From: Candidatus Eiseniibacteriota bacterium
GTDB lineage: Bacteria; Eisenbacteria; RBG-16-71-46
DNA length: 64,000 nt
Direction: 5' to 3'
NCBI GenBank assembly: GCA_038231135.1
Contig: JBBRLX010000012.1
Location: 45,944 to 109,943 of the forward strand
Part shown: piece after piece, positions 147 through 45,071 of the stretch
Layout of the letters: each line of letters begins with the position of its first letter
Numbering within the stretch: position 1 is the first letter of the stretch
Notes under the pieces: generated by a model
Databases searched by the model: none
The model's input: only the letters and a program-made list of their open reading frames with translations
What the model was told of the DNA's origin: nothing
Program-made: the position numbers and the translations under genes

Positions 147-3107
147 ATGCGCGCATTCCCCAAGGTCGGGATGTCGGAACCTTCCTACCTCGAACGCTTC
201 TTCGTTCACTCACTTGACGAGTTCGTCGAACTCGCCCCCGAGGTCCGCGCCCAGAGCGTGCGGTCCGTGGTGCCCGACCTAAACTTCTTCCTCGACGAGG
301 ACCGGGCGCTCGGCGACCGCGACGCGCCGCCGCGGACGCGCACACTCGCGCGCTCGCTGTTCGAGGCGCTGGCGAAGGTCGCCACCCCCGACGGCGCCCG
401 CACGCTGCGCGAGCGGGTGATCACCAACGCGCTGCTGCGCTCCGAGGCGGATCGCGACCAGAACGTCTACCTGGGCCGGTTGTTCACTCGCTCGCTCACG
501 CATGCGGTGCCCGACGTGATCCTCCAGCCTATGACGAGCGCCGAGACGGCGGCCGCACTGCGCTGGGCGCGCGAGCACAAGGTGCCGGTGACGCTGCGCG
601 GCGCCGCCACCACCGCCATGGGGGGCGCGGTGCCGAACGACGCCGGGCTGGTGCTCGATCTGTCCCGGCTCGACTCGGTCGAGATCGACGCGGCCGCCGG
701 CGTGTGCGTGCTCGGCGCGGGCGCGCGGCTGCGCACCGTGCACGCGGCGCTCGCGGCGCGTGGGCTGGCGTTACGCGCCTATCCCTCGAATCTCGGCGGC
801 ACGTTCGCCGGCTGGTTCGCCACCGGCGGCATCGGGCTCAACGCGGGGCTCGCGGGCCGGGCGCTCGACAACGTGCGCGCCGCCGACGTGCTGCTGCCGG
901 GCGGGGACCACGTGCGGTTCCACGACGACGGCCGCATCGACGTTCCCGAGGGCAACACGCGTGTCACGGTCACGGCCGAAGACGCGGCGCGCTGGTTCCA
1001 CCGGCGCGGCAGCAAGCCGATGGCGCTCGCCGATCTCGCGGGCAGCGAGGGCGCGCTGGGCGCGATCCTCCACCTGACGGTCCGGATCGAGGCGCGGCCC
1101 GAGATCGCCCCGTTCCTGCTCGCGTTCGAGCGCGAGCAGGACGCCGTGGACGCCGCCGAATGGGTGGCGCGGCTCGAGTTGCCGGCCCGCCCGGCGAACG
1201 TGAAGTTCCTGTCGGGGACGCACGTCCATCATACGCTGCGGGTGTGGGACGACGAGGCGGCGCGGGTGTGGAAGCGGCATCCGGGCACCGGCTCGAACGA
1301 TGCGGCGCTGCCGTGGACCCGCATCGTCGGGCCCGCCGAGATCGGCGCCGTGTGCACGCCGATGACGGCGCATCCCGGCGCGTGCCTGTTCGTCGACTTC
1401 TTCGACCTGCGCGCGGCCCGGGAATTCGCGGCGCGCATCGCGGCATGTCCCGGCGCTCCGACGCTGCTCGAGGACAGCGTGCGGTTCGCGGCCGAGCGGT
1501 TCCGGCCGCAGCAGACCAAGCGCTTCGGTCCCGGCCTGCTGGCGGCGGAGATCTTCCTGCCGGCGCCCGAGGTGAAACGGTTCCTGCCGCGCGCGGCCGC
1601 GCTCGCGCGGCGCGCGGGATCGGCGCTCGATGCCGAGGTGTATTTCCTCGCCGACGGCTCGGCGCTGGTGATCGCGGGCTATCTCACCGATCACCGCAGC
1701 GGCGCGTTCGCGGTCGACCTGATGCTGGCGCCCGCGCTGCTCGACCTGGCGATGACCGACCACCAGGGCCGCCCGTACGTGCTCGGCCGCTGGCAGTCGG
1801 CGTGGTTCGAGAACAAGTTCGGACCCGCGGCCGCCGACCGGCTGCGCGGGTTCAAGCGGGCGCTCGACCCCGATGCGATCCTGAATCGCGGCGTGCTCCT
1901 CGAGCCGCGGCTCCACGGCGTGCTCGGCGCGATCGTGGCGGCGGCGTTCGCGCCCGGCGTCGGCATCGTGCGCCACGTGTTTCAGCTGCCGGCGCTGGCG
2001 TGGATGGCGCGCGGCGCCCGCAGCGTGCTGCGCGGCATGTCGGGGCCGGCGCATGGACACGGCGAGCCGGCGGCGCCCGGCGCCCGGTTCCGCGTCGCCG
2101 CGCCGGAAGCCACGCGCAGTTCGAAGGCCCGGGCGGGCGAATCGCGTGCTGCCGCGGACGAGACGCCGATCATGCTGGCGGTGCCGCCCTCGGCGGTTGC
2201 TGCGGGCGCGGGAACGGCGGGCGGCTCGAGCGGGCACGAGCCGCAGACGGCGTCCCACGGCCACGGCGCCGACCGTGCCGCGGAGTTCGACCACCCGCCG
2301 GTACAACGCCCGGAGGATCGCGCGCTCCATTGTGTCAACTGCGGCGAGTGCAACAGCGTGTGCCCGGTGTTCCAGGACTCGAAAATCCGGCTGCCGCAGA
2401 TGCTCACGCACCTCGGCGAATCGATGCGCGCGGGCGAGAAGTTGGGCGCCACGGGGGGCACGCTGCTCGACCTGTGCATGCGCTGCGGCAACTGCGAGCA
2501 GGTCTGCCAGGCCGGGATTCCGCACCTGCCGCTCTACGACGAGATGCAGCGGTCCGCCGATCGCGTCCATCCCCACGACGACGAGCGCCACACCGTGATC
2601 GTCGCCGCGGTCCGGTCCTCGCCGCACTACCTGCGCGAGTTCCTCGGCGTGCGCCCGGGCGGCTATCAGAAGCGCGCGCCGGTCGCGCTGCCGGGCCTGA
2701 CGCGGTTCGTGGTGCTGCGATCCGAGAACGACGCAGGCCCGGCGGCCACGTGCATCCATTGTGGCGCGTGCGTGCCGGTGTGCCCGACGCACGCCAACCG
2801 CGAGTTCCAGGGTGCGGACGCGCGGTGGATCACGACCGTGCAGAACCGCTGCATCGGCTGCGGCGCCTGCGTGGAAGTGTGCCCCAACAATCATCAGAAT
2901 GGCGGCCAGACCCTGCGGGTGATGGAGGCGCCGACCCCCGACTGGTTCGCCGCGATCGCCGGGTTCCGTGGCGGGCGCGAGGGTGCGGGCGATATCCCCG
3001 GGTCCGGGTCGCCGCCGCGCGCCAGCGCTACATCGATGACACGAACGCCGGAAGCGGATTCGCCGCTCCCGGTGGCAACGCAGGTTCACCGGGCTTCGCG
3101 CGGGTAA
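147..3107 (+). CDS. FAD-binding (PCMH/GlcD-like) oxidoreductase fused to four [4Fe-4S] ferredoxin motifs
   Basis: FAD-oxidase motifs PDVILQP...VPVTLRGAATTAMGGAVP...LVLDLSRL, LAGSEGALG and KRALDPDAILNRG. C-terminal CVNCGECNSVCP, CMRCGNCEQVCQ, CIHCGACVPVCP, CIGCGACVEVCP. Alternative start ATG at 171. Confidence 0.85.
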   Translation: MRAFPKVGMSEPSYLERFFVHSLDEFVELAPEVRAQSVRSVVPDLNFFLDEDRALGDRDAPPRTRTLARSLFEALAKVATPDGARTLRERVITNALLRSEADRDQNVYLGRLFTRSLTHAVPDVILQPMTSAETAAALRWAREHKVPVTLRGAATTAMGGAVPNDAGLVLDLSRLDSVEIDAAAGVCVLGAGARLRTVHAALAARGLALRAYPSNLGGTFAGWFATGGIGLNAGLAGRALDNVRAADVLLPGGDHVRFHDDGRIDVPEGNTRVTVTAEDAARWFHRRGSKPMALADLAGSEGALGAILHLTVRIEARPEIAPFLLAFEREQDAVDAAEWVARLELPARPANVKFLSGTHVHHTLRVWDDEAARVWKRHPGTGSNDAALPWTRIVGPAEIGAVCTPMTAHPGACLFVDFFDLRAAREFAARIAACPGAPTLLEDSVRFAAERFRPQQTKRFGPGLLAAEIFLPAPEVKRFLPRAAALARRAGSALDAEVYFLADGSALVIAGYLTDHRSGAFAVDLMLAPALLDLAMTDHQGRPYVLGRWQSAWFENKFGPAAADRLRGFKRALDPDAILNRGVLLEPRLHGVLGAIVAAAFAPGVGIVRHVFQLPALAWMARGARSVLRGMSGPAHGHGEPAAPGARFRVAAPEATRSSKARAGESRAAADETPIMLAVPPSAVAAGAGTAGGSSGHEPQTASHGHGADRAAEFDHPPVQRPEDRALHCVNCGECNSVCPVFQDSKIRLPQMLTHLGESMRAGEKLGATGGTLLDLCMRCGNCEQVCQAGIPHLPLYDEMQRSADRVHPHDDERHTVIVAAVRSSPHYLREFLGVRPGGYQKRAPVALPGLTRFVVLRSENDAGPAATCIHCGACVPVCPTHANREFQGADARWITTVQNRCIGCGACVEVCPNNHQNGGQTLRVMEAPTPDWFAAIAGFRGGREGAGDIPGSGSPPRASATSMTRTPEADSPLPVATQVHRASRG

Positions 3108-3138
3108 CCGCTCGCGCCGAGGCTCACGTTCCGGAATG

Positions 3139-3162
3139 CCGCGGGGCTTTCGAGCTCCGCGG
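3139..3162 (+). promoter_or_regulatory. 10-bp stem with TTCG tetraloop just upstream of the glutamine synthetase RBS
   Basis: ccgcggggct-ttcg-agctccgcgg (one G-U pair). GGAG RBS at 3172-3175, ATG at 3182. No U-tract. Confidence 0.5.
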
Positions 3163-3181
3163 GGTTCGATTGGAGACCGCA

Positions 3182-5383
3182 ATGACTTCCACGTCGCATC
3201 GCATGCACCGCCTGTCCACGAACCAGCGCCAGCCGCGCGTGTTCGATCCGCCGCGCCAGCCAGATGGCCACCGTTCGCCCGTCAGCGCCTACTTCGGCCG
3301 CCACGTGCTGGACCTGATCAAGCTCAAGGAGCGGCTGCCGCGCGAGGTGTACCAGCAACTGCTCACCACGCTGCGCAACGCCACGCCGCTCACCGCCGAC
3401 GCCGCCGAGACGATCGCGTCGGTGGCGCGCGAATGGGCGACGTCGCACGGCGCCACCCATTTCACGCACTGGTTCCAGCCGATGACGGGGCTCACGGCCG
3501 AGAAGCACGACAGCTTCATCGACCTCAACGTCACGATGTCGGGAGAGTTCAAGGTGCTCGAGCGGTTCTCGGGCGCGCAGCTAACGCAGAGCGAGCCCGA
3601 CGCCAGCTCGTTCCCGTCGGGCGGCATGCGTAGCACGTTCGAGGCGCGCGGCTACACGGCGTGGGACCCCAGCTCGCCGATGTTCCTCGTCGAGAGCGTG
3701 AACGGGCGCACGCTGTGCGTGCCGTCGGTGTTCGTGAGCTATCACGGCGAGAGCCTCGATCACAAGACGCCGCTGCTGCGGGCGCTCGACGCGCTGAGCC
3801 GCACCGCGGTGCCGTTCCTCAAGCTGCTCGGCGACGTCGACGTGCGGTCCGTCAACGCGACGCTGGGCTGCGAGCAGGAGTATTTCCTGATCGACCGCGA
3901 CCAGTACACCACGCGCCCGGACCTCGTGCTGTGCGACCGCACGCTGGTTGGCGCGGCGTCGGCGCGCGGCCAGCAGTTCGAGGACCATTACTTCGGGTCG
4001 ATCCCGCCGCGCGTGCTCGCCTACATGGAGGAGCTGGAGTTCGAGCTGCACCGCCTCGGCATTCCGGTGAAGACGCGCCACAACGAGGTGGCGCCGATGC
4101 AGTTCGAGATGGCGCCGATCTTCGAGGACGCGAATCTAGCGAACGACCACAACGCGCTGTCGATGGACATCGCGCGCAAGGTCGCGCTGCGCCACGACTT
4201 CGTGTGCGTGTTCCACGAGAAGCCGTTCTGGGGCTTGAACGGCAGCGGCAAGCACTGCAACTGGAGCCTCGTGACCGATCGCGGCGAGAACCTGCTCGAT
4301 CCGGGCCGGACGCCGCACCAGAACCTGAGGTTCCTGGCGTTCGTAGCGGTGTGCATCAAGGCCGTGCACGACCACGCGGACGCGATCCGGTTCTCGGTGT
4401 CGGGGCCGAACAACGACCTGCGGCTCGGCGCCAACGAGGCGCCGCCCGCGATCATGAGCGTGTTCGTCGGCGACCTGCTCACGAAGATCATCGAGCGCAT
4501 CATGTCGGGCGCCGCGTCCGGCGACCCCGAGCACTTCGTAATGGAGGTTGGCGTGGCGCGGCTGCCGCAGCTCGCGCGCGACAACACCGACCGCAACCGC
4601 ACCTCGCCGTTCGCGTTCACCGGCAACAAGTTCGAGTTCCGCGCCGTCGGCAGCAGTGCCAACTGCGCGGGCCCGATGACGATGCTGATCGCCGCGGTCG
4701 CGGACGCGATCGCCACCATGACGCCACGGCTCGAGTCCAAGATCAAGGCCGGCACCGCGCGCGACCAGGCCGTGCTCGACCTGCTGCGCGAGGTATTCAA
4801 GGAGACGTCGGCGGTGCGGTTCGAAGGCAATGGCTACAGCGCCGAATGGAAGGACGAGGCGGCCCGCCGCGGGCTGCCGAACCTGACCGACACGCCGGCG
4901 TCGATCGCAGCGCTGGCCGATGACCCCAAACGCACCGCATTCCTGCGCGAGCAGGCGATCTTCACCGAGCGCGAGCTGGCGAGCCGGTTCAGCGTGGCGC
5001 TCGAGCGCTACATCAAGACGGTGATGCTCGAGGCGGAGACGCTGATCGAGATCCTCGGCACGTTCGTGATTCCATCGGCCGAGAAGCAGCTCGCGGTGTC
5101 GGCGAATGCGCTGCGGGACGCCCCAGGCGGCGTGACCGGGCTCGACAAGCGGCTGCGGGCGATCGCGCTCGCGCTCGCCGACGGCCTCGCGGGCGTCGAT
5201 CGGCTGCAGGAGTTGATCGCGGGAGATGGCGGCCACGACGAGGCGGCATTCGCGCGCAAGCTGGCCTCCGAGGTGCGGCCGGCGATGGAGGCGGCGCGCG
5301 CGGCGTGCGACCGGCTCGAGCGGCTTGTCGATCACGACCTGTGGACGATGCCCAAGTACCGGGAGATGCTGTTCGTCCGCTGA
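3182..5383 (+). CDS. glnN: Glutamine synthetase type III (733 aa)
   Basis: GSIII motifs GATHFTHWFQPMTGLTAEKHDSF, EPDASSFPSGGMRSTFEARGYTAWD, TRHNEVAP, HEKPFWGLNGSGKHCNWS, RLGANEAPPAI, DRNRTSPFAFTGNKFEFRAVGSS, C-terminal WTMPKYREMLF. Start set at ATG 3182 after GGAG. Confidence 0.96.
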   Translation: MTSTSHRMHRLSTNQRQPRVFDPPRQPDGHRSPVSAYFGRHVLDLIKLKERLPREVYQQLLTTLRNATPLTADAAETIASVAREWATSHGATHFTHWFQPMTGLTAEKHDSFIDLNVTMSGEFKVLERFSGAQLTQSEPDASSFPSGGMRSTFEARGYTAWDPSSPMFLVESVNGRTLCVPSVFVSYHGESLDHKTPLLRALDALSRTAVPFLKLLGDVDVRSVNATLGCEQEYFLIDRDQYTTRPDLVLCDRTLVGAASARGQQFEDHYFGSIPPRVLAYMEELEFELHRLGIPVKTRHNEVAPMQFEMAPIFEDANLANDHNALSMDIARKVALRHDFVCVFHEKPFWGLNGSGKHCNWSLVTDRGENLLDPGRTPHQNLRFLAFVAVCIKAVHDHADAIRFSVSGPNNDLRLGANEAPPAIMSVFVGDLLTKIIERIMSGAASGDPEHFVMEVGVARLPQLARDNTDRNRTSPFAFTGNKFEFRAVGSSANCAGPMTMLIAAVADAIATMTPRLESKIKAGTARDQAVLDLLREVFKETSAVRFEGNGYSAEWKDEAARRGLPNLTDTPASIAALADDPKRTAFLREQAIFTERELASRFSVALERYIKTVMLEAETLIEILGTFVIPSAEKQLAVSANALRDAPGGVTGLDKRLRAIALALADGLAGVDRLQELIAGDGGHDEAAFARKLASEVRPAMEAARAACDRLERLVDHDLWTMPKYREMLFVR

Positions 5384-5394
5384 CGAGGGCCGCG

Positions 5395-8300
5395 ATGACC
5401 ACCGAATCGCATCACCCGCCGGACGGCCTGCTGTTGGCCTTTGACCGAACCCAGCGCGGAGCCGCGGAGCTCATGCCGCAGCTCGCGCTGTGGGAGGACC
5501 TGCTCGCGCTGGTGGTCGATCCCGACAGCCCGCGCGTGGCGGATCGCGCCCGCAAGCGGGAGTTGCTGTCGTTCCTGCTCGAGCGCGGCGGCATCGACGA
5601 GGCGGCGTTCTGGAACCTGGGACGCGGCCGCCGCGGCCGCATGTTCCTCGCGCGCTGGTCGCGGGTGTCGCGCGAGATCCCGCAACTCGAGCTGACGTCG
5701 TTCGATCTCGACAAGGTGCTGAAGGAACGGCACCGCCACGAGCCGCTCACGGTGGGAGCGGCGTGGCACCACGGCTTCTGGCGTTCGTATTTCTCGCACG
5801 CCGCGATCACGCATCCCGCGAACGACGGGCTGCGCGAGGAGTTCTCGACGGCGTGGGACATCGGCCGCCGCCATCCGGCGGTGATGTTCCGCACCGGAGC
5901 GGGCATCGAATTCCAGCCGCTGCGCTCGATCCGGCTCGCGTTGCCGATGATCGTCGGGCCGTTCCGCCACACGGACGGCATCACGCTCGAGCGCGCCTGG
6001 CTCGAAGCCGTGGCGGGCCCGCAGCCGGCGGACGGGCCTTCGGGCGGGTCGCTGGTGGTCGTCGACGGCATGAGGTTCATGGAGAACGTTGCGGAACTGC
6101 TGCCGCACGCCCGGCATCTGGTCGTGCGCGTTCGCCACGCGCAGCTCGCGGCGATCGATGCGGCGTGGCCGTCGTCGGCTGCGCTGCGCGACCTGCTGGC
6201 GGTGGCGCGCATGATCGAAGTGGTGTGGAGTCCGGGCATCGCCACCGATGTCGCCGCGCTGCGCGAACGCCATCCGGAGCTGCTGGTGTCCGTATTCATG
6301 AAGTACGAGGCGGGCGGGCGGATCGAGGCGGGCCAGGGAACGACGCAGGACTTCTGGCGCGCGCTCGAGGACACGGTGCGCCTCGAATCCGTGGCGATGA
6401 TCCACTACCACGCGGGGCCCGAGAAGTCCTACCGGCTGACGCCTCGCATCGACGCGTATCTCAAGGCGCGATTCCTGCGCGCGCGCGTGCAACTCGTGTC
6501 CGCGGGCGGTGACACCGACACGCAGGCGTCGGCGGCGACGGTGTACGAATCGGTGCTGCTGGGCGCCAACGGCGGCGCGATGACCGACGTGGCGGCGATC
6601 GCGCTCCTGCCGGGGCTGATCGAGGTGTATCACGGTGCCGATCCAGCGCCGGTGCTCGAGGAGCTGAAGTCGCTCCCGAAGCGGGAGCTGCGCGAGCTGG
6701 CGGCGAATTCGCTCGACTGCTGGCAGCACAGCATCCTCGATTTCCTGTCGTGCATGGGCATCGACGACATCCAGAAGACCTCGGGCAACACCATGGCGAT
6801 CACCATGACCGAGGACTGGATCCGCGAGGTGGACGCGCTCGCCACGCCGGCGTTCGGCGCCGTCAATCGCGAGCTGAACGCCGCGCGCATCGCCGCCGAG
6901 CCGGTGCCGGCGGACGTGCGTGAGCGCTACCGCGTGTCGTCGCTGCTGACGGAGCGCGTGGCGGAGCTGCCGCTGGTGGCGGCGGCGAAGATCCTCGCCC
7001 ACGACAACGCGAACTTCCATCTCGAGAACACCAACCGGAACCTGAGCGCCGACTTCCTCGAGGTGATTTACCGCATGGCGGCGGGCGAGCTGCCGACCGC
7101 GGACGAGTTCCTGATCGACAGCGACATGGGCGAGCTGTCGCTCGACTCGGTGGGCGTGCAAGTGTCGCGCGAGTCGATCGCCTGGTCGCTGGCCCGGCTG
7201 GCGCGCGATCCGGCGCTGCTGGACTACGTGTCGCTCGCGGTGCCGCGCGGCTTCATGCGGCCGGGCGCAGTGGCGGCAGGCGCCCGGGTCGAGATCCGCG
7301 CGGCGTCGGACGGCCCGGCGCTGGTGGCGTTCACCGCCGATGCCCGCGGCGGATTCGAGCACCCGCTCGCCGCCGGGCATCCGCTGGATGCCGCGCTCGC
7401 GGGCGATTCACCGCTGTGGCTGGTCGTGCGCGACGCCGCGGGCGCGGAGCGGCGCACCGAGCTGCAGGCGCTGGCGCATGGCGGGCACGGCCTCGGCGTG
7501 GCGCGGGCCTCGCGCGACGGCGCGGTCACGCTGCGGCGTGATCCGCGCGGCGGCGTGGTGATCGCCGGATTCGGGTTCCGCGAGCCGATCTGGCACGGGC
7601 CCGTCGCCCACGCCAGCATCTCGCTGGGGGCCGCGTCGGAGGACTTCCTCACCGCGCGCATCGAGGGCAACGCCGGGCTGGCGATGACGTCGTCCGGCGA
7701 AGGCGGCCCGATCCGCTTCGCCGGCGGCGAGATGGCGTGGGAGAGCATGCAGGCCGCGAGCGGGCACTTTGGCATCCACGCCGCCGACCTCCGGCGCGTG
7801 CGCGACGTCGAGATCAAGATCAACCAGGGCGCCAAGCCCGGCAAGGGCGGCCGGCTGTCGGGCGCCAAGGTCACGTCGACCGTGAGCCGGGCGCGCAACA
7901 TCCCGATCGGCACCGACGCGCTGTCGCCCGATCCCAAGCACGACATCTATTCGATCGAGGACATGCCGGCCGAGGTGTGGCTGTGGCTGCTGTACCACAA
8001 CCATTGCGGCATCAAGATCACCGGCTCCAACTACACGCGGTTCGTGGCCGCGGGCATGTGGTCGAACTTCGTCGTCGACTATCTGCTCGTCGACGCCGGC
8101 CTCGGCGGCTCGGGCAACTACCACGCCGACAGCTCGCACGTCGGCTGGCCCGACATCTTCCGCACGATCCTGCACACCCACCACGCGCTGGTGTCCGAAA
8201 AGGTCGACCTCGACCGCTCGGGCCGGCTCCAGTCGCTGCGCGACTCGAACGGCGCGCCGTTCGGCGCCACGGGCGGCACGCGGCTGCTGGCGTCGGGCGG

Positions 8301-11300
8301 CCTGCGCGGCGAACTCGACATGATCAAGGTGCTGATCGCCGGCGCCGACGCGCTCGTCGAGGCCAGCATCGGCAAGGCGGTGGCGTTCGGCTGCAACCAG
8401 TGCGGTAACTGCCATCTCGACTGCCCGCGGGGCGGCATCACCACCAAGCCCGAGCTGACGGTGCAGAACGACCGCGTGCTGATGCGCCAGCGGTTCCGCA
8501 ACTGGACCGTGCTCAATATGGTGAAGCTGGCGGTGCTGATCGACGCGATGAACCGCGAGAGCGGCGCGCTCGACGAGGCCGGCCAGGTGGCGGTGGCGTC
8601 CATGCTGCTGAGCGACATCCGCCAGCTCCGCGGCCGCACGGATCTGCTCGCGATGCCGGTGCGCCCGCGCCCGGCGGACGGCTCGGTGCACGGGACTGTC
8701 GCCACGCCGTCCGCGATGACCGCGCGCGCCGCCGATGCCTCGGGGGCGCCCGCGATCGTCACGAGCGGGGCGGGCGCGGGGACCCGGCTCGAGCCCGAAC
8801 GCGATTCGTGCCGCGTCGGCTCGCTCGCGGTGTCGGAGCCGGTCACGGTGCACGCGATCTGGGAGTCGGCGCGGCTGTCGTACAACGGCGGCAACAATCG
8901 CGGCGGCGGCATCGATTTCGCCGGGTTCGCGCCGGCCGCGGTGCGCGAGAAGACCTGCGTGATCGTGAACACGATCGGCCCCGACCGCGCCGACACGATG
9001 CGCGAGATGCTGGATCACTTCGCCGGCTGCCGGTTCTTCGACGCCGCGGGCGCGAAGCTGACGCTCGACCAGGTGCGGTCGCGGCTGCCGGAGTTCCGCG
9101 TGCCGGTGCGCGGGCAGTGCGCGGCCGAGGACGGCTGGCGGCTCGCCGACCTGCGCGAGAATCCCGGCGACTTCACCGTGCTGTTCGTGGACCTGCGCGA
9201 TGACGTGCTCGACCGCTACGGCCGCATGCTGCTCGCGAGCGAGCACTGGCTGCAGCGCCTCACGAAGTACGGCGAATTCGCCGCCGAGCCGGCGCCCGAT
9301 CAGCTCGAGGACTTCACCGCCGACGTGCGCGAGGAGTACTTCACGGCGCTCGCCCATCTGCTGGATTCCCGCTACTACCGCACGCACGCGCCCGCCGGCA
9401 GCACGCCGCCCGCCGGCAAGTACGCGGCGAAGCGCCGCGGCTTCGTGGTGTCGATGGGCGAGGACCTGGGCGCGATCAAGATCTCGGGCTGGACGCACAC
9501 GATCCCCGAGTACTTCGACTTCGACCGGTTCTGGGCGGGTTACCCCGGCGCCGCGCCGGACGGCGTGGACATGCGCATCAAGGGCCGTCCGCTAAGGACC
9601 ACCGCGCTGCACGCCCACGTGTGGGGCATGCACCATCGCTACCCCACGAACTCGCCGGCGATCGATGCCGAGGGCCGCGGCAACCCGGCGGGCGCGCATC
9701 CATTCAAGGCGTACAACGTGCTGCTGATGCACAACGGCGAGCAGGTGGCGGTGGATTCGACCGCGCCGTTCCTGATGGAGTACGGCTACGTGCACGCCGA
9801 TCCGACGATGGGCCCGGGCCACGCCGACTATCACGGCGACTCGGTGTACGAACGCAAGGCGCTGACCGACACCGAATACGCGGCGTATCTCGTCGACTTC
9901 ACGCGCCGCGTGCTGGGACTGACCACCGAGGAGGCGAGCCAGATCATCTCGCCGATCACGGGCTTCGATCTCGCGAACATGGATCCGGTACGCCGTACCA
10001 AATTCGAGCTGCTGATGCGCAACTACGTGCAGCTCACGCCGACCGGTCCCTACAAGTTCACGATCGTGGAATCGCGCCGGCATCACGCGCCGTCCGCGAA
10101 TGGCGGCGCCCGCTCGGCGCGGGTGGTGGGATTCCGCGAGAACATGGACATCAAGTTCCTGCGCCCGCACGAGATCGTGGTCAGCACCGACACCGGCAAG
10201 GGCGGCGTGCACGTGGTGGCGAACGGCAGCGAGGCCAAGATCGCCGACAGCATGCTGCGGGCGCTGCACGTGCAGGGCGTGCTGCCGGACGCCGCGCACG
10301 ACCTGCGCTTCAACATGCGCCCCGGCGGCACGCCGGAGCGGCGCGACTACGGCGGCGTGTTCGAGGCGTTCACCGTTCCCGGCAGCGGCCGGCTCGACCT
10401 GAGCAACCGGTTCGGCGAGCCCGTCGAGGTGGCGCGGCGCGGCGCCAAGGTCGATTTCGCGGTGCCGCTCGACCAGGCGGTGGCGCGCGCGAACGGGCCG
10501 TGGAAGCAGCAGATCGACGCGCGCCTGCGGCAGCTCGCCGCGGCCGTCGACCCGCTCGCGGACGCGGCCGGCCGCCGACGGCGGTTCGGGCCCGACGACG
10601 ACCTGCCGGCGCCGGCGTCGGAGTTGCTCGAGAGCCTGCTCGATCACACGCGCTCGGTGACGTTCGAGGACTATCGTTGTTTGGTGGAGCACGCGCTGCC
10701 CGAATGGGCGCGCGGCGGCGCGACGCCCGAGCCGGTGAAGGACGTGCGCACCGCCGTGGCGCTGCGCATCCTCACCGAGCTGCGCAAGCGCGTGAGCCTC
10801 GGCGACCTCGGCGGGAAGTCGCTGTCGAGCATGGAATATCTCACCGACGGCGGTCGCTCCGCCGACGGCAGCCCGGAGGGCGGCGTGTACCGGCTGCTCG
10901 ATCGCGTCACGCCGCTGCACGCGGCGCTCGCGCCGCCGGCGCCGTCCGGACGCTGGGGCCGGCTCACGCTCGGCACCCGCGACGACCTGCTGCCGCCCAC
11001 CGATCCCGAACGCGACGTGCTGGTGATCGACTTCCGCGGCTTCGAGAGCGAATCGTTCCGCATGGACTCGGCGTCGCGCACCGTGAGCGAGGCCGTGCGC
11101 ATGGGCTGGCGGCAGTTCGTGGGCTACGACTTCATCGGCGGGCCGCGCTACATCGGCACCAATCTACCGGCCGCGGACGGGCTTGCGGCGGTGGGCGTGA
11201 CGCTCGAGCTCTACGGCCGCGAGTTCGGCGACTTCATTGGCGCGCTGCTCGAGGGCGCGCGCGTGTTCGTGTACGGCCAGGGCGAGAGCCACGTCGGCAT

Positions 11301-11943
11301 GAAGGCCGATTCGGGCTACCTGTTCGTGCTGCAGGACATGCTCAACACCGGCATGTACGCGGCGCACGGGGGCACGGTGAACGTGTGGGATTCGGGCTCG
11401 CGGTTCGCGGTCGCCGGTCAGAACAAGGTGCTGCTCGCCGACGGCAAGACCCCCGCGCCGGGTTTCAAGTCGATCCATTTCGGATCGCCCAACGAATACG
11501 CGTTCGAGTACCTGATGTCGGGCGGCGATAACTCGTTCCACGTCGTGATGGGACTCCAGAAGCCCGACGCGCGCGGCAACCTGTCGCTCAAGCCGCGGCC
11601 GTATTCCGGAAAGTTCTTCATGTCGGGCGCCGCGGCCGGCCGCGTGTTCGTATTCGACCCGCTCGTGAAGCTCGATCCTGCGCAGTACACGGGCAACGTG
11701 CTGTCGGCGGTCACGCCCGAGGAGTGGGCCCGGGAGATCGGCCCGTTCATTGCGGACGAGGCGGGGCGGCGCGGGCTGCCGATCCGCATCGAGGGGGACG
11801 CGATCCGCATCCGGCTCGACGGCGAGTGGCAGCGCTGGCACCGGGACGAGGCGTTCGCGAAGCTGATCCCGGTCAGGATCGCGAAGGCCGCGCAGCAGCA
11901 GGGCATCGCCCCGCCGGCGCTGACCCAGATCGTCGGGGAATAG
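5395..11943 (+). CDS. gltB: Glutamate synthase-like multidomain protein, permuted order: degenerate FMN barrel + FMN/Fe-S domain + internal class II (Ntn) amidotransferase + GXGXG domain (2182 aa)
   Basis: FMN-domain motifs TSSGEGG, QAASGHFG, EIKINQGAKPGKGG, SPDPKHDIYSIED, LASGGLR and CNQCGNCHLDCP. Amidotransferase motifs ERDSCRVG, HHRYPTNS, AHPF, LMHNGE, TDTE. C-terminal Gly-rich beta-helix (GDFIGA, YAAHGG, EYLMSGG, FMSGAAAG). Confidence 0.85.
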   Translation: MTTESHHPPDGLLLAFDRTQRGAAELMPQLALWEDLLALVVDPDSPRVADRARKRELLSFLLERGGIDEAAFWNLGRGRRGRMFLARWSRVSREIPQLELTSFDLDKVLKERHRHEPLTVGAAWHHGFWRSYFSHAAITHPANDGLREEFSTAWDIGRRHPAVMFRTGAGIEFQPLRSIRLALPMIVGPFRHTDGITLERAWLEAVAGPQPADGPSGGSLVVVDGMRFMENVAELLPHARHLVVRVRHAQLAAIDAAWPSSAALRDLLAVARMIEVVWSPGIATDVAALRERHPELLVSVFMKYEAGGRIEAGQGTTQDFWRALEDTVRLESVAMIHYHAGPEKSYRLTPRIDAYLKARFLRARVQLVSAGGDTDTQASAATVYESVLLGANGGAMTDVAAIALLPGLIEVYHGADPAPVLEELKSLPKRELRELAANSLDCWQHSILDFLSCMGIDDIQKTSGNTMAITMTEDWIREVDALATPAFGAVNRELNAARIAAEPVPADVRERYRVSSLLTERVAELPLVAAAKILAHDNANFHLENTNRNLSADFLEVIYRMAAGELPTADEFLIDSDMGELSLDSVGVQVSRESIAWSLARLARDPALLDYVSLAVPRGFMRPGAVAAGARVEIRAASDGPALVAFTADARGGFEHPLAAGHPLDAALAGDSPLWLVVRDAAGAERRTELQALAHGGHGLGVARASRDGAVTLRRDPRGGVVIAGFGFREPIWHGPVAHASISLGAASEDFLTARIEGNAGLAMTSSGEGGPIRFAGGEMAWESMQAASGHFGIHAADLRRVRDVEIKINQGAKPGKGGRLSGAKVTSTVSRARNIPIGTDALSPDPKHDIYSIEDMPAEVWLWLLYHNHCGIKITGSNYTRFVAAGMWSNFVVDYLLVDAGLGGSGNYHADSSHVGWPDIFRTILHTHHALVSEKVDLDRSGRLQSLRDSNGAPFGATGGTRLLASGGLRGELDMIKVLIAGADALVEASIGKAVAFGCNQCGNCHLDCPRGGITTKPELTVQNDRVLMRQRFRNWTVLNMVKLAVLIDAMNRESGALDEAGQVAVASMLLSDIRQLRGRTDLLAMPVRPRPADGSVHGTVATPSAMTARAADASGAPAIVTSGAGAGTRLEPERDSCRVGSLAVSEPVTVHAIWESARLSYNGGNNRGGGIDFAGFAPAAVREKTCVIVNTIGPDRADTMREMLDHFAGCRFFDAAGAKLTLDQVRSRLPEFRVPVRGQCAAEDGWRLADLRENPGDFTVLFVDLRDDVLDRYGRMLLASEHWLQRLTKYGEFAAEPAPDQLEDFTADVREEYFTALAHLLDSRYYRTHAPAGSTPPAGKYAAKRRGFVVSMGEDLGAIKISGWTHTIPEYFDFDRFWAGYPGAAPDGVDMRIKGRPLRTTALHAHVWGMHHRYPTNSPAIDAEGRGNPAGAHPFKAYNVLLMHNGEQVAVDSTAPFLMEYGYVHADPTMGPGHADYHGDSVYERKALTDTEYAAYLVDFTRRVLGLTTEEASQIISPITGFDLANMDPVRRTKFELLMRNYVQLTPTGPYKFTIVESRRHHAPSANGGARSARVVGFRENMDIKFLRPHEIVVSTDTGKGGVHVVANGSEAKIADSMLRALHVQGVLPDAAHDLRFNMRPGGTPERRDYGGVFEAFTVPGSGRLDLSNRFGEPVEVARRGAKVDFAVPLDQAVARANGPWKQQIDARLRQLAAAVDPLADAAGRRRRFGPDDDLPAPASELLESLLDHTRSVTFEDYRCLVEHALPEWARGGATPEPVKDVRTAVALRILTELRKRVSLGDLGGKSLSSMEYLTDGGRSADGSPEGGVYRLLDRVTPLHAALAPPAPSGRWGRLTLGTRDDLLPPTDPERDVLVIDFRGFESESFRMDSASRTVSEAVRMGWRQFVGYDFIGGPRYIGTNLPAADGLAAVGVTLELYGREFGDFIGALLEGARVFVYGQGESHVGMKADSGYLFVLQDMLNTGMYAAHGGTVNVWDSGSRFAVAGQNKVLLADGKTPAPGFKSIHFGSPNEYAFEYLMSGGDNSFHVVMGLQKPDARGNLSLKPRPYSGKFFMSGAAAGRVFVFDPLVKLDPAQYTGNVLSAVTPEEWAREIGPFIADEAGRRGLPIRIEGDAIRIRLDGEWQRWHRDEAFAKLIPVRIAKAAQQQGIAPPALTQIVGE

Positions 11944-14172: not shown

Positions 14173-14988
14173 ATGGCTTTCGTTACCCGTCTCTTCAACG
14201 AGCCCTATCCCATTCGCAAGGCATGCCGCATCGCGATACGCAAATTGAATCTGGGCAGCTATGCGTTTCGTTACGGCATTGGCGCGATTGATCGGCCGCA
14301 CTATGCCTATTTGGTCTGGCAGGCCGCTAAAATGGCGGCGGGCCTTGGGCTTCCACGCGTATCTATTCTGGAATTCGGCGTTGCCGGGGGCACGGGATTG
14401 CTTTCGCTGGAGTATCACGCGGAGCAGGTCGAGAAGCTATTCCCCGTCAAGATCGAGATATATGGGTTCGACACTGGGGAAGGATTGCCGCCGCCGGACG
14501 ACTATCGAGACCTGCCCTATCATTGGAAGGCGGGTTTCTTCAAGATGGATGTCCCGGCGCTGCAGGCGAGGCTCAGGCGATCAAAGCTCGTTCTGGGTAA
14601 TGTCGCCGAGACCTTCGGATCGTTCTTCGAAAACTATGCTCCGGCGCCGATCGGCGCCGTTTCACAGGACCTTGATTTCTACTCCTCCACGGTTGCCGCC
14701 TTGAAGCTGTTTGACGCCGACCACAATCGTTTCCTTCCGCGTATTGCGTGTTATTTCGACGACACGGTCGGCAATGATATCGAGTTCTACAATGACTATA
14801 CGGGTGAACGTCTGGCGATTCATGAATTCAACGCAACTCACGCCGACGCGAAGTTCTCCCCGGCATATTATCTACTGGCCGCGCCGAACATGTCGGTCTG
14901 GCATCACCAGATATGGTCGCTGCATTATTTTGACCACCCGCAATACAACACCTTTGTCAGCGACAAGGATCAACAGCTGGCCCTCTAG
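14173..14988 (+). CDS. SAM-dependent methyltransferase-like protein (TylF/MycF/NovP-like), atypical low-GC codon usage
   Basis: ILEFGVAGG, IYGFDTGEGLP, DLDFYSST, YFDD motifs; many A/T-ending codons. Confidence 0.6.
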   Translation: MAFVTRLFNEPYPIRKACRIAIRKLNLGSYAFRYGIGAIDRPHYAYLVWQAAKMAAGLGLPRVSILEFGVAGGTGLLSLEYHAEQVEKLFPVKIEIYGFDTGEGLPPPDDYRDLPYHWKAGFFKMDVPALQARLRRSKLVLGNVAETFGSFFENYAPAPIGAVSQDLDFYSSTVAALKLFDADHNRFLPRIACYFDDTVGNDIEFYNDYTGERLAIHEFNATHADAKFSPAYYLLAAPNMSVWHHQIWSLHYFDHPQYNTFVSDKDQQLAL

Positions 14989-18408: not shown

Positions 18409-21144
18409 CTACTCCGCTGCCCGCGCCGCCAACCGCTTGAGCGCCTCGTCCATCCGGATCCCCTCGCCGAGGACGGCGGTCAGGGGATCGTCCATTCCGG
18501 CGAAGCGCTCGAGCACGGTGCGGATATTGAATCGCGCGGGCACGAGCCCCGGTGCGACCTCGTCCCACAGCAGCGGGCACGACACGGTCGCCCCGGGCAG
18601 CGCGCGCACGCAGAACGGCGACACGATCGACTGGCCGTGGCCGTTCTGGCCGAAGTCGACGTACACCTTGCCGCCGCGGCCCTGGATGTGGCGCACGATG
18701 GTCGAGATCTTCGGCAGCCGCTGCACCACCAGTGTGGCGATCAGCTTCGCGAACGCGCGTGAGTGCTCGTAGGAGTACCTGGCGCCGAGCGGGATCAGGA
18801 TGTGCAGGCCGCTCGCGCCCGATGTCTTCGGATGCCCCGGGATCTCGAGTTCGTCGAGGATGCCCTTGAGCGTGCGTGCCACCTCGATCACGTCCGCGAA
18901 CGGCGCGCCCTTGGGGTCGAGATCCAGGATCGACCAGTCGGGCCGATCGATCGCGCCGAGCCGCGAACTCCACATGTGAATCGGGATCGTGCCCAGGTTC
19001 GCGAGATAGCGCAGCGTGTCGGTGTCGTTCACGATGAAGAACCGGTTCGAGACGCTGCCGTCGCTCGATGGCACCATCTCGGTATGCACCCAGTCGGGCG
19101 TGAACACCGGCGCGTCCTTCTGGTAGAACGACTTCCCGGTGATGCCGTCGGGATAGCGCGTGAGGAACACCGGCCGGTCGCGCAGGTAGGTGAGGATGCG
19201 CGGCGCGATCGCCTCGTAGTAGCCGATCAGGTCGGACTTGGTATAGCCGTCGGCGGGCCAGAAGACCTTCTTCGGATTCGTGATCGGGACCCGCTCGGTG
19301 TGCGCCGGGCGCTCGCGGACCTTCGGCGCGGGAACCGCGGTATCAGCGTCGCCATCGTATGTGGCGTCCGTGGATCCGGCGCCGGACGTGGGGTCCGCGA
19401 CCGCCGCGTCCTCGCGCACCACGTCCTCGGGCTTGCGATCGTCGCGCAGCCCCATGAACGTCGGATGCCGCAGCCCGCCCTCGTGAGTCCACTCCGTATA
19501 GCGCACCTCGCACACCAGCCGCGGCTCGACCCAGTGATGTCCTTTGCCCTTGGGCGAGCGCCTCGCGAACGGCGATGCGTCGCGCGCCAGCGGCTCGAGC
19601 CGCTGCCAGAGCGCCTCGATGCCGCGCGCGTCGAAACCGGTGCCGACGGCGGTGACATACACGAGCTGGCGGACGGGCGCGGTTTCATACACACCCACGT
19701 GCAGCGCGCCGAACCGGCCGCGCGAACCCTGCGGGTCGGTCCAGCCGCCGATCACGAATTCCTGGCGGCGCTGGCACTTGAGCTTGATCCAGTCGCGGGA
19801 CCGCGCGCTCACGTACGGGCTCGCCGCCCGCTTCGCGACGATGCCCTCGAGCCGCATGGCGTCCGCCGCCGCGAAGAACTTGAGACCGTGCTTCGCGACG
19901 TGATCGCCATAGCGCACCGTGCCCAGCGTCGGCAGGATCGCGCGCAGGCAGTCCTTGCGATCCGTCAGCGCCAGCCGGCGCAGGTCGTGCCCGAACAGCG
20001 ACACGCAGTCGAAGAACATCGCCACCACCGGCGACGCGGCGCGCGCGCGCGCGATGTCGTGCTGATTCACAAGGTGCATGCGGTGCTGCAGCTGCTGGAA
20101 GCTGGGCTGGCCGGTCGCGTCGGGCGCCACGATCTCGCCGTCGAGCACGAACGCGTCGTACGGCAGGCCCTTCAGCGCCTCGACGACCTCCGGGTAGCGG
20201 CCCGTCACGTCGGTGCCGCTGCGCGCGAACAGCGTCACACGGGCCCCGGCGCGTTCGGCGATCACGCGCACGCCGTCGTACTTGATCTCGAAGATCCAGC
20301 CGTCGCGGTCGAACGGTTCCGTTTCGAGCGTGGCCAGCATTGGCGACAGCTTCTTCACGTCGATCGCCGCCACCGGCGCGCCGAGCGCCTCGACCCGTGT
20401 ACGGACCTTCGCCACGTGGCCGGGCAGATCCGCCATCTCCTCCACGGTGACCCCGGTCACCACCGATTGCGGATAGCGGTCGACCAGCTCCACGTCCGAC
20501 GCGCCCGCGCCGGCCTTCTTGAGCAACAGCCACTCCTTGTCCTTATTGCCCATGCGGACGAGCGTCCAGCGGCCGCGCAGCTTGGTGCCGAACAGCTCCA
20601 GCTCGAGCTTGCCGCGTTGATATTGTTCGAGCAGTGGCTCGGGTTTGAACGACCGGTACCAGCCGCGATCCCAGATGATCACGCTGCCCGCTCCGTAATT
20701 GCCGGCGGGGATCGTGCCTTCGAAGCTGCCGTATTCCAGTGGATGGTCCTCGACGTGCACCGCGAGGCGTTTCTCCTCGACATGGGTCGACGGCCCCTTC
20801 GGCACCGCCCAGCTCTTGAGCGTGCCATCGAGCTCGAGCCGCAGGTCGTAGTGGAGGTGCGTGGCGGCGTGCTTGTGGACGAGGAACGTCAGCCGTCCGG
20901 CGTGGCGCTGGCCGGGAGCGGCGGCGGATTCGCCGCCGAACGGCTCGGGAGTGCTGCCGGGATCGCGCTTGAGCCGGTACGCTTCGAGGTTGGAAGTCAC
21001 TGTGGAATCGTCAACTGATTCCACTGGCGGTTTGGCCCGTTTCGCCGGCGCGCGCTTGCCGGCCGCCGGAACACGATCCGGCACCGGTCCTGCCCCCGGC
21101 CGGGCTTTGGGTTCGGTGTCCGCCTTCGGTTTGCGTGCGCCCAT
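18409..21144 (-). CDS. ligD: NHEJ DNA ligase D (phosphoesterase-ligase-polymerase order)
   Basis: PE domain HAATHLHYDLRLELDGTLKSWAVPKGPS; ligase FEIKYDGVR, LDGEIV, LEGIVAKR, DWIKLK; POL domain RYPDGI, LDLDP, KTSGASGLHI. GGAG RBS before ATG 21144. Confidence 0.96.
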   Translation of the reverse strand: MGARKPKADTEPKARPGAGPVPDRVPAAGKRAPAKRAKPPVESVDDSTVTSNLEAYRLKRDPGSTPEPFGGESAAAPGQRHAGRLTFLVHKHAATHLHYDLRLELDGTLKSWAVPKGPSTHVEEKRLAVHVEDHPLEYGSFEGTIPAGNYGAGSVIIWDRGWYRSFKPEPLLEQYQRGKLELELFGTKLRGRWTLVRMGNKDKEWLLLKKAGAGASDVELVDRYPQSVVTGVTVEEMADLPGHVAKVRTRVEALGAPVAAIDVKKLSPMLATLETEPFDRDGWIFEIKYDGVRVIAERAGARVTLFARSGTDVTGRYPEVVEALKGLPYDAFVLDGEIVAPDATGQPSFQQLQHRMHLVNQHDIARARAASPVVAMFFDCVSLFGHDLRRLALTDRKDCLRAILPTLGTVRYGDHVAKHGLKFFAAADAMRLEGIVAKRAASPYVSARSRDWIKLKCQRRQEFVIGGWTDPQGSRGRFGALHVGVYETAPVRQLVYVTAVGTGFDARGIEALWQRLEPLARDASPFARRSPKGKGHHWVEPRLVCEVRYTEWTHEGGLRHPTFMGLRDDRKPEDVVREDAAVADPTSGAGSTDATYDGDADTAVPAPKVRERPAHTERVPITNPKKVFWPADGYTKSDLIGYYEAIAPRILTYLRDRPVFLTRYPDGITGKSFYQKDAPVFTPDWVHTEMVPSSDGSVSNRFFIVNDTDTLRYLANLGTIPIHMWSSRLGAIDRPDWSILDLDPKGAPFADVIEVARTLKGILDELEIPGHPKTSGASGLHILIPLGARYSYEHSRAFAKLIATLVVQRLPKISTIVRHIQGRGGKVYVDFGQNGHGQSIVSPFCVRALPGATVSCPLLWDEVAPGLVPARFNIRTVLERFAGMDDPLTAVLGEGIRMDEALKRLAARAAE

Positions 21145-21269
21145 GGTGCTCCCTGACAACGGGGTGACGGCCCCGGCCCGCAACACGTTTCGCGCCATAG
21201 GCTAGCACGCGGCGGGCGTGGGGCGTGTGATAGGCTCATGCCTCGTTCGGCCACCTGGAGGATTCACCA

Positions 21270-22142
21270 ATGCCGCCTCATTCCATGGGCTCGGGCACGA
21301 TCTCGTTCGGGCTCGTATCGATTCCGGTGCGCATGTATACGGCCGCCAGCGGCACCGGCGTGTCGTTCAACCTGCTCCACGAGAAGTGCGGCAGCCGGAT
21401 CAAGCAGCAGCAAACCTGCCCGGTGTGCAACGAGGTCGTCGATCGCACCCATCTGGTCAAGGGCTTCGAATTCGCCAAGGACCAGTACGTGCGGTTCACG
21501 GAGGAAGAGCTGAAGCAGCTCGAGCAGGAGAACTCGAAGCTGATCGAGATCGAGGAATTCGTCCCGCTCGACAAGGTCGATCCGATCTACTTCGAGAAGA
21601 CCTATTACCTGGGCCCGGACAGCGGTGGCGAGAAGCCGTACCGCCTGCTCACCGACGCCATGAGCAAGACGAATCGCGTCGCGCTCGCGAAGTTCGTGAT
21701 GCGCGGCAAGGAGAACCTGGTGCTGATCCGCGCGGCGCAGGGCGGCCTGATGCTGCACGGCATGTATTTCGCCGACGAGGTGCGCGACTTCAGCGAGGTC
21801 GACAAGGGTGAATCGGCCAAGCTCAAGGCCGGCGAGCTGGAGCTGGCGGAACGGCTGATCAAGGAACTCGCGAACGACAAGTTCCAGCCCGAGAAGTATC
21901 ATGACGAGTATCGCGGGAAGGTGCTCGAGGTCGTGAACATGAAGGTCGAGGGCAAGGAGATCACCACCGCCGCGCCGCAGTCCGAGCGCGCGCAGGTGAT
22001 CGACCTGATGGACGCGCTGAAGCAAAGTCTCGAGGAACGCGGCGCGAGCGACAAGGGCACGAAACCCGCGCGCAAGCCGGCCGCCAAGGCCACGCGCGTG
22101 GTGGAAGCGGCGCCGAAGAAGAAGACCGCATCGAAGCGGTGA
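21270..22142 (+). CDS. ku: NHEJ Ku protein
   Basis: GTISFGLVSIPVRMY, VKGFEF, IDLMDALKQSL, basic C-tail; H-x2-C...C-x2-C bridge; GGAGG RBS. Confidence 0.96.
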   Translation: MPPHSMGSGTISFGLVSIPVRMYTAASGTGVSFNLLHEKCGSRIKQQQTCPVCNEVVDRTHLVKGFEFAKDQYVRFTEEELKQLEQENSKLIEIEEFVPLDKVDPIYFEKTYYLGPDSGGEKPYRLLTDAMSKTNRVALAKFVMRGKENLVLIRAAQGGLMLHGMYFADEVRDFSEVDKGESAKLKAGELELAERLIKELANDKFQPEKYHDEYRGKVLEVVNMKVEGKEITTAAPQSERAQVIDLMDALKQSLEERGASDKGTKPARKPAAKATRVVEAAPKKKTASKR

Positions 22143-43804: not shown

Positions 43805-43871
43805 GGAGTGCAGGTTATCACCGCGGCGGCCCCGCTTCACGACGCGCGGCTTTGAGCGTAATCTCCCGCTC

Positions 43872-45071
43872 ATGGCCAAGTCCTACATCATCATCGGCGG
43901 CGGCAATGCCGCGGCTTCCGCAATCGAAGGCATTCGCGAGCACGATACCGACGGCTCGATCCTGTTGGTGTCGCGCGAGAACCATCTGCCGTACGAGCGT
44001 CCGCCGCTGTCCAAGGAGTTGTGGTTCGGCAAGAAGACGCTCGACGCGATCTCGCTGCACGACGAGGCGTGGTATCGCGAGCGCAGCGTCGAGGTCGCGC
44101 TGCGGCGCGAGGTCGTCGAAATCGATCCGGCACAGCATGCGGTGTGGGACGATCGCGGTGATCGCCACGACTACGACGCGTTGCTGATGGCCACGGGAAG
44201 CCGGCCGCGGCTGATGGGCGGAGCGGGAGTCGGAGTGGAAGGCATCCACTACTACCGGTCGCTCGAAGACTATCTGGTGCTCAGGGACCGGCTGCGCACG
44301 GTGCAGCACGTGCTGGTGGTGGGCGGCGGGTTCATCACGATCGAGATTGCCGCGGCCCTGCGCCACAACGGAGTCGAGGTCACGTTCGTCTACCCGCACG
44401 AGTATCCGCTGCAGCGCGTGCTGCCGCGCGAGCTCGGGCTGCACGTCGCCGAGTACTACCGGGAGAAGGGCATCGAGACACTGTCGGGCGACGCCATCAC
44501 CGGATTCGAGAATCGTCAGGGGCTGATCGAGGCGCAGACGCGCGGCGGGAATACGATCACCACCCAGCTCGTGCTCGTCGGCATCGGCGTGGAGCCGTCG
44601 GTCGAGCTGGCCGAGGCGTGCGGCCTCGAGGTCGGCAACGGCATCGAGGTCGACGAATTCGCGCGCACCTCGGACGCGAGCATCTGGGCCGCCGGCGACG
44701 TGGCCGGGTTCCCGTACCTGGCACTCGGCGAACGCACGCGCATCGAGCACTGGGACCACGCGGAGCATCATGGGCGTGCGGCCGGGGCCAACATGGCCGG
44801 CGCGAACAAGCCGTACGACCACCTGCCGTTCTTCTGGTCGGACTTCTTCGACATGGGCTGGGAGGCGGTCGGCGACACCGATTCGAGCCTCGAGATGGAC
44901 GTGATCTGGAACGAGCCGTTCAAGGAAGGCATGCTGTTCTACCTGCGCGAGGACGTCATCCGCGGGGTACTGATGTGGAACATGTGGGAGAAGGTCGAGT
45001 GGGCGCGCGACCGGATTCGCGAGGCCCGGCCCAGCACTCATGCCGAACGCGAAGCCTGGGTGCACGGCTGA
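43872..45071 (+). CDS. NAD(P)/FAD-dependent oxidoreductase (ferredoxin reductase / AIF-like)
   Basis: IIGGGNAA, PYERPPLSK, ATGSRPR, VVGGGFI, WAAGDVA, RIEHWDHA, PFFWSD. Confidence 0.92.
   Translation: MAKSYIIIGGGNAAASAIEGIREHDTDGSILLVSRENHLPYERPPLSKELWFGKKTLDAISLHDEAWYRERSVEVALRREVVEIDPAQHAVWDDRGDRHDYDALLMATGSRPRLMGGAGVGVEGIHYYRSLEDYLVLRDRLRTVQHVLVVGGGFITIEIAAALRHNGVEVTFVYPHEYPLQRVLPRELGLHVAEYYREKGIETLSGDAITGFENRQGLIEAQTRGGNTITTQLVLVGIGVEPSVELAEACGLEVGNGIEVDEFARTSDASIWAAGDVAGFPYLALGERTRIEHWDHAEHHGRAAGANMAGANKPYDHLPFFWSDFFDMGWEAVGDTDSSLEMDVIWNEPFKEGMLFYLREDVIRGVLMWNMWEKVEWARDRIREARPSTHAEREAWVHG

Follow-up and report, generated by a model that had tools for sequence, protein, structure and literature searches.

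How is a glutamate synthase supplied with electrons when no gltD lies beside it? Glutamate synthase is one of the chief routes by which ammonia enters cells, and the question is raised by the start of a 64,000-nt stretch of DNA from a Candidatus Eiseniibacteriota bacterium (GenBank assembly GCA_038231135.1, contig JBBRLX010000012.1, positions 45,944–109,943; hereafter the window). Here, three open reading frames (ORFs) encode a flavin adenine dinucleotide (FAD)/iron–sulfur (Fe–S) protein of 986 amino acids (aa), a type III glutamine synthetase (GSIII) of 733 aa and a 2182-aa protein resembling glutamate synthase (Table 1). An earlier sequence-only reading of this DNA had described three co-oriented, closely spaced genes and no gltD in the window. 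Both observations were reproduced: the intergenic gaps are 74 and then 11 nt, and the sole reduced nicotinamide adenine dinucleotide (phosphate) (NAD(P)H) flavoprotein among the 19 other window ORFs scanned is AIF-like. The gene for this AIF-like protein (Pyr_redox_2, AIF_C; 43794–45068) is unlinked to the synthase operon. The G+C content at third codon positions (GC3) is 0.91–0.94 across all three ORFs, the source genome is 93% complete, and its nearest named relatives are Candidatus Eisenbacteria metagenome-assembled genomes at 75–76% identity. Our sequence comparisons point, with good probability, to a glutamate synthase whose catalytic chain would mature by internal cleavage and whose electrons would arrive through FAD and four-plus-one Fe–S clusters, with the GSIII of this locus completing a glutamine synthetase (GS)/glutamate synthase (GOGAT) operon.

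The 2182-aa protein is built from a degenerate barrel, a flavin mononucleotide (FMN) barrel, an internal amidotransferase and a β-helix, in that order. Its single Pfam match is Glu_synthase (PF01645; residues 735–1039, 149 bits), while the amidotransferase and GXGXG parts were missed by Pfam and recovered by profile and fold searches. When the FMN barrel is aligned to GltB from A. brasilense (1ea0), Glu855 falls at Glu978, the gating residue of that enzyme; GAKPG, Arg834 and SIED are conserved as well, as are the glutamine-site motifs of the chain. The same barrel carries a CxxCxxCxxxC motif at Cys1000–1010. Counted over 120 homologues, the catalytic motifs of the synthase are kept in 118–120. 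The degenerate barrel (residues ~100–480) is colinear both with its active counterpart and with the barrel proteins that split relatives encode separately, and it lacks the GEGG, GAKPG, SIED and cluster motifs. Pfam finds no match to the GltB central domain (PF04898) in the 2182-aa protein, though this degenerate duplicate is present and, judging from its sequence, likely takes the role of that domain.

Class II amidotransferases require a free N-terminal Cys, and here the domain begins deep inside the chain, at an internal Ntn cysteine that the sequence-only reading had overlooked. In an AlphaFold model of residues 1076–2182 (predicted local distance difference test score (pLDDT) 86), the preceding linker is of low confidence and the first strand begins at Cys1139 (model residue 64), which falls on residue 1 of 1ofe, 1ea0, PurF and GlmS in structural alignments. 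Because Cys1139 is the equivalent of Cys1 and class II enzymes need that residue free, cleavage between residues 1138 and 1139 is predicted. The linker varies from 19 to 99 aa in the 117 of 120 homologues in which it was measurable; its variability and low confidence, along with the Cys1 alignment, suggest that the chain probably cleaves itself at Ser1138/Cys1139. The sequence around the predicted site reads E-R/H-D-S-C1139-R-V, with DSCR at the amidotransferase start in 119/120 homologues and HHRYPTN, HNGE and TDTE in 120/120. The model superposes on 1ofe with a Z score of 23.9 and a root-mean-square deviation (rmsd) of 3.3 over 593 residues, covering both amidotransferase and β-helix, and across Synechocystis and Azospirillum GltS some 600 residues superpose at 3.3–3.6 Å, in agreement with Foldseek. 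The β-helix, which has profile hits to GltB 1202–1359 and FwdC, is placed against the amidotransferase as in GltB. In a review of glutamate synthases, Cys1 is the marker of the glutaminase site (PMC8097209).

The conserved unit is two genes, encoding the FAD/4xFe–S protein and the 2182-aa synthase. The FAD gene lies upstream at all 48 GTDB loci that reach the synthase 5′ end; the remaining 12 of 60 loci, which lack it, are cut by contig ends. No other metabolic neighbour recurs widely at these loci. GSIII is inserted between the core genes at only 4 of the 48, so the three-gene form, which the sequence-only reading had described as an operon, is the exception and not a conserved arrangement. 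At one locus (L035, 7942–9437), ~1.5 kb without a GS match separates the FAD and synthase genes.

The linkage extends to distant relatives. A metagenome scan with an alignment of distant FAD proteins (25–41% identical to a split-type query) covered the best 80 of 207 confirmed stretches, partly redundant. Synthase parts follow the FAD gene at 63 of the 63 loci with at least 1 kb downstream, a count to be read knowing that the scan used one motif from already linked proteins and so favours linked hits. At 34 of the 80 loci, a single ORF spans everything from FAD motif to internal Cys. Searching representatives at 50% identity likewise gave single chains of 2526–3016 aa containing all modules, and P0311, P0336 and P0366 are FAD-to-synthase fusions in one chain. 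Of the 50 distant loci whose 5′ side extends for at least 1.5 kb, 33 have type I glnA, scoring over the GlnA cut-off, upstream; a P-II gene occurs at 6 metagenome loci. Unlinked homologues would have spoken against the pairing first proposed; the FAD gene was instead linked at every informative locus in both surveys.

Of 151 genomes from the phylum, 32 were matched by the amidotransferase query and 27 by the FAD cap query; an amidotransferase match accompanies the FAD match in 25 of the 27 and a PF01645 match in G029, giving 26/27 (G113 was not examined). Eight distant hits are split forms, comprising an FAD gene, a ferredoxin-headed degenerate barrel, an FMN barrel and an amidotransferase–GXGXG protein with EGGCGV, and the FAD gene is adjacent at four of these eight loci. 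The barrel protein begins with an altered ferredoxin-like segment at L072, L073 and L075. At L074 (G123:C112, 138–10908), a split-type operon (FAD, double barrel, amidotransferase–GXGXG) adjoins a divergent GSIII that resembles the window's, a second link between GSIII and the synthase family. Besides split and fused relatives, the catalytic chain has 737 homologues in Eisenbacteria, Thermoleophilia, Planctomycetota and others.

A genome-wide check leaves the synthase with no evident GltD. PF01645 has one strong match in the source genome, the 2182-aa protein itself, which is the only synthase FMN domain. The sole GltD-like gene (PF14691; C13:63272–64510) scores below all GltD cut-offs and is PreT-like, lying near a dihydropyrimidinase gene; PF14691 genes occur equally in 19/19 synthase-less relatives. 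On its PreT context we set this distant gene aside as an improbable partner of the synthase, although it may act in trans. A PreA-like ORF, identified by sequence reading, is found on the same contig (G000:C13, 40620–41990), 21 kb from the PreT-like gene and not adjacent to it, and pntAB-like transhydrogenase genes also lie near preT. With the linkage and fusion described above, the PreT-like character of this gene supports the earlier proposal of an FAD/Fe–S protein in place of GltD, and the protein likely replaces this usual electron-supplying subunit.

Pfam matches the 986-aa protein to FAD_binding_4 (E 1e-26) and, weakly, to FAD-oxidase_C. Its four CxxCxxCxxxC motifs (residues 729, 777, 869 and 902) are each present in 120/120 homologues. 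The third and fourth make up a ferredoxin domain, which in split relatives is found at the head of the degenerate-barrel protein. The best fold match of the predicted model (pLDDT 89.6) is mouse D-lactate dehydrogenase (LDHD; 8jdp, Z 28.0, rmsd 2.7, 435 residues aligned), and the fold is common to the FAD-dependent D-2-hydroxyacid dehydrogenases (mouse LDHD 8jd entries, A. woodii LctD 7qh2, GlcD, D2HGDH; Z 26–28), with a profile match to LctD at E 7e-53. A study of mouse LDHD describes Arg347, His398, His405, Glu442 and His443 as each essential, with His398, His405 and Glu442 as metal ligands and His443 as the base (PMC10589216). The Arg347 equivalent is retained as Arg451 (profile lweERffP on LWAARHNAW), invariant in 28/28 members of a family profile of split, fused and window-type sequences, 21–62% identical to the window protein. 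By contrast, the equivalents of His405, Glu442 and His443 are absent and His398 is replaced. The GEHGIG metal/base motif has become GRPYVLG (Pro543, Tyr544) in the window protein; in the family profile GrPYgiG sits on GEHGIG, with hydrophobic residues on the second His, and GEH occurs in 0/120 close homologues.

Since the metal ligands and His base are replaced, oxidation of lactate or glycolate by the known LDHD chemistry is unlikely; we rejected it, and the earlier suggestion of 2-hydroxyacid oxidation is not supported as regards the known mechanism. The FAD-binding segments, Arg451, Glu468, Tyr544 and Trp549 are invariant across the 28-sequence profile, and the domain has probably kept the ability to bind FAD together with an anionic ligand, though not via metal-dependent 2-hydroxyacid chemistry. 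The subunit has the LDHD/LctD fold and is not a member of the D-2-hydroxyacid dehydrogenases, from which it also differs in lacking a CCG domain and in being wired to a synthase. Look-alikes in the ESM Atlas (score 0.93–0.95) are stand-alone FAD proteins of 458–490 aa from Bacillota, Thermoplasmatota and Thorarchaeota, and there may thus be remoter relatives with no link to a synthase. Searching for FAD homologues of shorter length gave mostly contig-end fragments and weak generic dehydrogenases.

These features suggest how the complex would work. The 2182-aa chain would cut itself at Ser1138|Cys1139, freeing the nucleophile while the two pieces remain associated. Glutamine would be hydrolysed and its ammonia passed to 2-oxoglutarate at the FMN barrel, with Glu855 as the gate. 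The FAD would accept two electrons, their most likely source being an anionic substrate of low potential that Arg451 binds in a metal-free site, and these would pass through the four clusters and the Cys1000–1010 cluster to FMN. At the window locus, the inserted GSIII gene would supply glutamine and so close a GS/GOGAT cycle. The FMN potential of canonical GltS is given as −240 to −270 mV in section 6.1 of the review (PMC8097209), which favours a low-potential donor, and NAD(P)H may serve as donor to the FAD subunit. For a donor at around −190 mV, the potentials would have to be shifted from the canonical ones. A bolder version, which we advance only tentatively and think somewhat doubtful, is a further class of synthase, fuelled directly by an organic compound: a metal-free flavin of the D-lactate dehydrogenase fold would oxidise a carboxylate, and five Fe–S clusters would wire it to the self-cleaving enzyme with no call on NAD(P)H or free ferredoxin.

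Several observations weigh against an assimilatory synthase fed through FAD. Four of the eight split-type loci (L072, L073, L075, L078) have no FAD match, indicating that the synthase can exist without this module. Coupled with the loss from the dehydrogenase site of its metal ligands and its base, this would suit an FAD domain that is non-catalytic or regulatory, the Fe–S chain collecting electrons from free ferredoxin or flavodoxin as a ferredoxin-type synthase with an attached wire. We consider this unlikely, given the residues and FAD-binding segments held invariant in the 28 divergent sequences. Moreover, none of the five genome ORFs with at least two CxxCxxCxxxC motifs in a six-frame scan is a stand-alone 2x[4Fe–4S] ferredoxin, single-cluster and [2Fe–2S] ferredoxins and flavodoxins lying outside that scan.

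The distribution of GS is a further difficulty. In a survey of 52 of the 151 phylum genomes (the 32 matches and the first 20 listed non-matches), GS was found in only 6/22 carriers of the window's family and not in the other 16 (carrier genomes 80–100% complete), while it is present in 19/19 non-carriers (family f1, among G002–G068), all without any synthase domain. Such scarcity is odd for an assimilatory enzyme, and the two ELFV-family (glutamate-type) dehydrogenase matches in the source genome mean that the synthase need not be its glutamate source. This nearly complementary pattern, together with the dehydrogenase/oxidase fold of the FAD domain, could instead reflect a mainly oxidative complex, in which FMN would be the site of glutamate oxidation and the Fe–S chain and FAD would conduct the electrons out to an acceptor; at its boldest, this reading has glutamine made from channelled ammonia without ATP in genomes lacking GS. 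We rate this a little lower than a non-catalytic FAD domain. Glutamine hydrolysis drives the glutamate synthase reaction toward glutamate, and a GS-family gene is found in 23/26 carrier genomes that were reached via other loci and lie mostly outside the window's family, in keeping with the glnA upstream of distant loci. The gap in the window's family may go back to a single inherited loss shared by related genomes that are incomplete, perhaps those of peptide feeders in which the enzyme would serve to use up glutamine taken in from outside. We also rejected a general role for the enzyme in place of GS, the complementary pattern being confined to one family.

The catalytic core itself shows some divergence. 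The amidotransferase starts with C-R-V and has N-G-G-N-N-R, against C-G-V and N-R-G in relatives, the FMN barrel has SGHFG and GGSG in place of the GltB motifs SGRFG and GGTG, and the NCBIfam model PRK11750 scores 80 against a cut-off of 1047. Of 26 other carrier genomes, 5 also have canonical GltB (PF04898), which was not found in the remaining 21. One could therefore imagine that the core uses a different amine or acceptor, like N-methylglutamate synthase (MgsABC). This strikes us as very improbable, for the core retains its glutamine-site motifs as well as GAKPG, Arg834 and SIED, and neighbouring synthetases are GlnN-type or GlnA, not the GmaS type that accompanies the methylamine system (TIGR03105 scores 42 against a cut-off of 469.6 for the window synthetase). 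Methylamine and one-carbon families were also not recognised among recurrent neighbours, as judged from sequence starts, not scanned. The window synthetase instead matches type III GlnN in its GSIII_N (E 1e-67), Gln-synt_C and Gln-synt_C-ter domains, all over Pfam cut-offs, with no notable difference, and as a neighbour it is variable.

The proposed FAD-fed glutamate synthase can be placed against known systems. GltB/GltD (A. brasilense 1ea0, 6s6s; B. subtilis 7mfm) and the ferredoxin-dependent enzyme Fd-GltS (Synechocystis 1ofe) share with it the FMN barrel motifs, the Glu978 equivalent, a truncated second barrel, and a class II amidotransferase and β-helix in the same relative position. Their order is amidotransferase–central–FMN–GXGXG, whereas here it is barrel–FMN–amidotransferase–GXGXG, with the nucleophile Cys 1139 residues inside the chain and four Cys in the FMN-domain cluster motif. 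The FAD-to-Fe–S-to-FMN chain is shared with GltB/GltD by analogy with section 6.1 of the review (PMC8097209), although GltD is adrenodoxin-reductase-like and the partner here is a VAO/PCMH flavoprotein with four clusters. The complex probably works like GltB/GltD, but its domain order departs from that of glutamate synthases and its partner is not GltD. The genes of the archaeal-type split synthase are named GltB1–3. In the review, that system has separate amidotransferase, FMN and GXGXG ORFs (PMC8097209); modular genes and, in split relatives, a ferredoxin-headed FMN barrel are common to both. It differs in that here the amidotransferase and GXGXG form one protein, in which a leader precedes the Cys, and in the duplicated degenerate barrel and dedicated PCMH-type FAD subunit of the present family.

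Table 1 Features of the synthase locus (window coordinates).
Feature	Position	Strand	Basis or remark
FAD/Fe–S subunit, 986 aa	147..3107	+	VAO/PCMH-type FAD + cap, helical 2x[4Fe-4S] dicluster domain, ferredoxin-like 2x[4Fe-4S] domain
FAD-binding + cap domain, residues 63-588	333..1910	+	D-lactate dehydrogenase fold; Arg451; GRPYVLG
Four CxxCxxCxxxC motifs, Cys729-Cys912	2322..2891	+	Motif scan
Type III glutamine synthetase (GlnN type), 733 aa	3182..5383	+	Pfam; lies between the core genes at some loci only
Rearranged glutamate-synthase-like catalytic protein, 2182 aa	5395..11943	+	Pfam, profile and fold searches
Degenerate duplicate synthase barrel, residues ~100-480	5692..6834	+	Colinear alignment
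FMN/2-oxoglutarate synthase barrel, residues 735-1088	7597..8658	+	GEGG, QGAKPG, YSIED, cluster motif Cys1000-1010
Variable linker ending in E-R/H-D-S	8659..8808	+	Directly before predicted cleavage site
Internal class II (Ntn) glutamine amidotransferase, starts at Cys1139 (8809-8811)	8809..10443	+	HHRYPTN, HNGE, TDTE; profile and fold matches
GXGXG beta-helix domain	11002..11913	+	Profile hits and structural alignment

A promoter and terminator scan gave nothing above chance, and no match was found on viral contigs. Elsewhere in the window, divergent genes for LigD (ligase, phosphoesterase and polymerase domains) and Ku (18412–22139) form an ordinary non-homologous end-joining pair. A 271-aa ORF (14173–14988) has a GC3 of 0.67, against ~0.9, and no Pfam match at 1e-8, and was possibly acquired.

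Standard annotation misses the synthase protein: of its four domains only one is detected by Pfam, and its NCBIfam score falls far short of the cut-off. No published description of the rearranged synthase/FAD family was found in the literature searched, whose coverage leaves out most subscription journals. The forms of glutamate synthase given in the review are only the NADPH/GltD, NADH and ferredoxin types (PMC8097209). Judged by its domain arrangement, the rearranged enzyme would be a new form of glutamate synthase. The family would add to the glutamate synthases a different electron-input module and an amidotransferase activated by cleavage deep inside the chain, along with a flavoprotein subfamily set apart from LDHD-type substrate chemistry.

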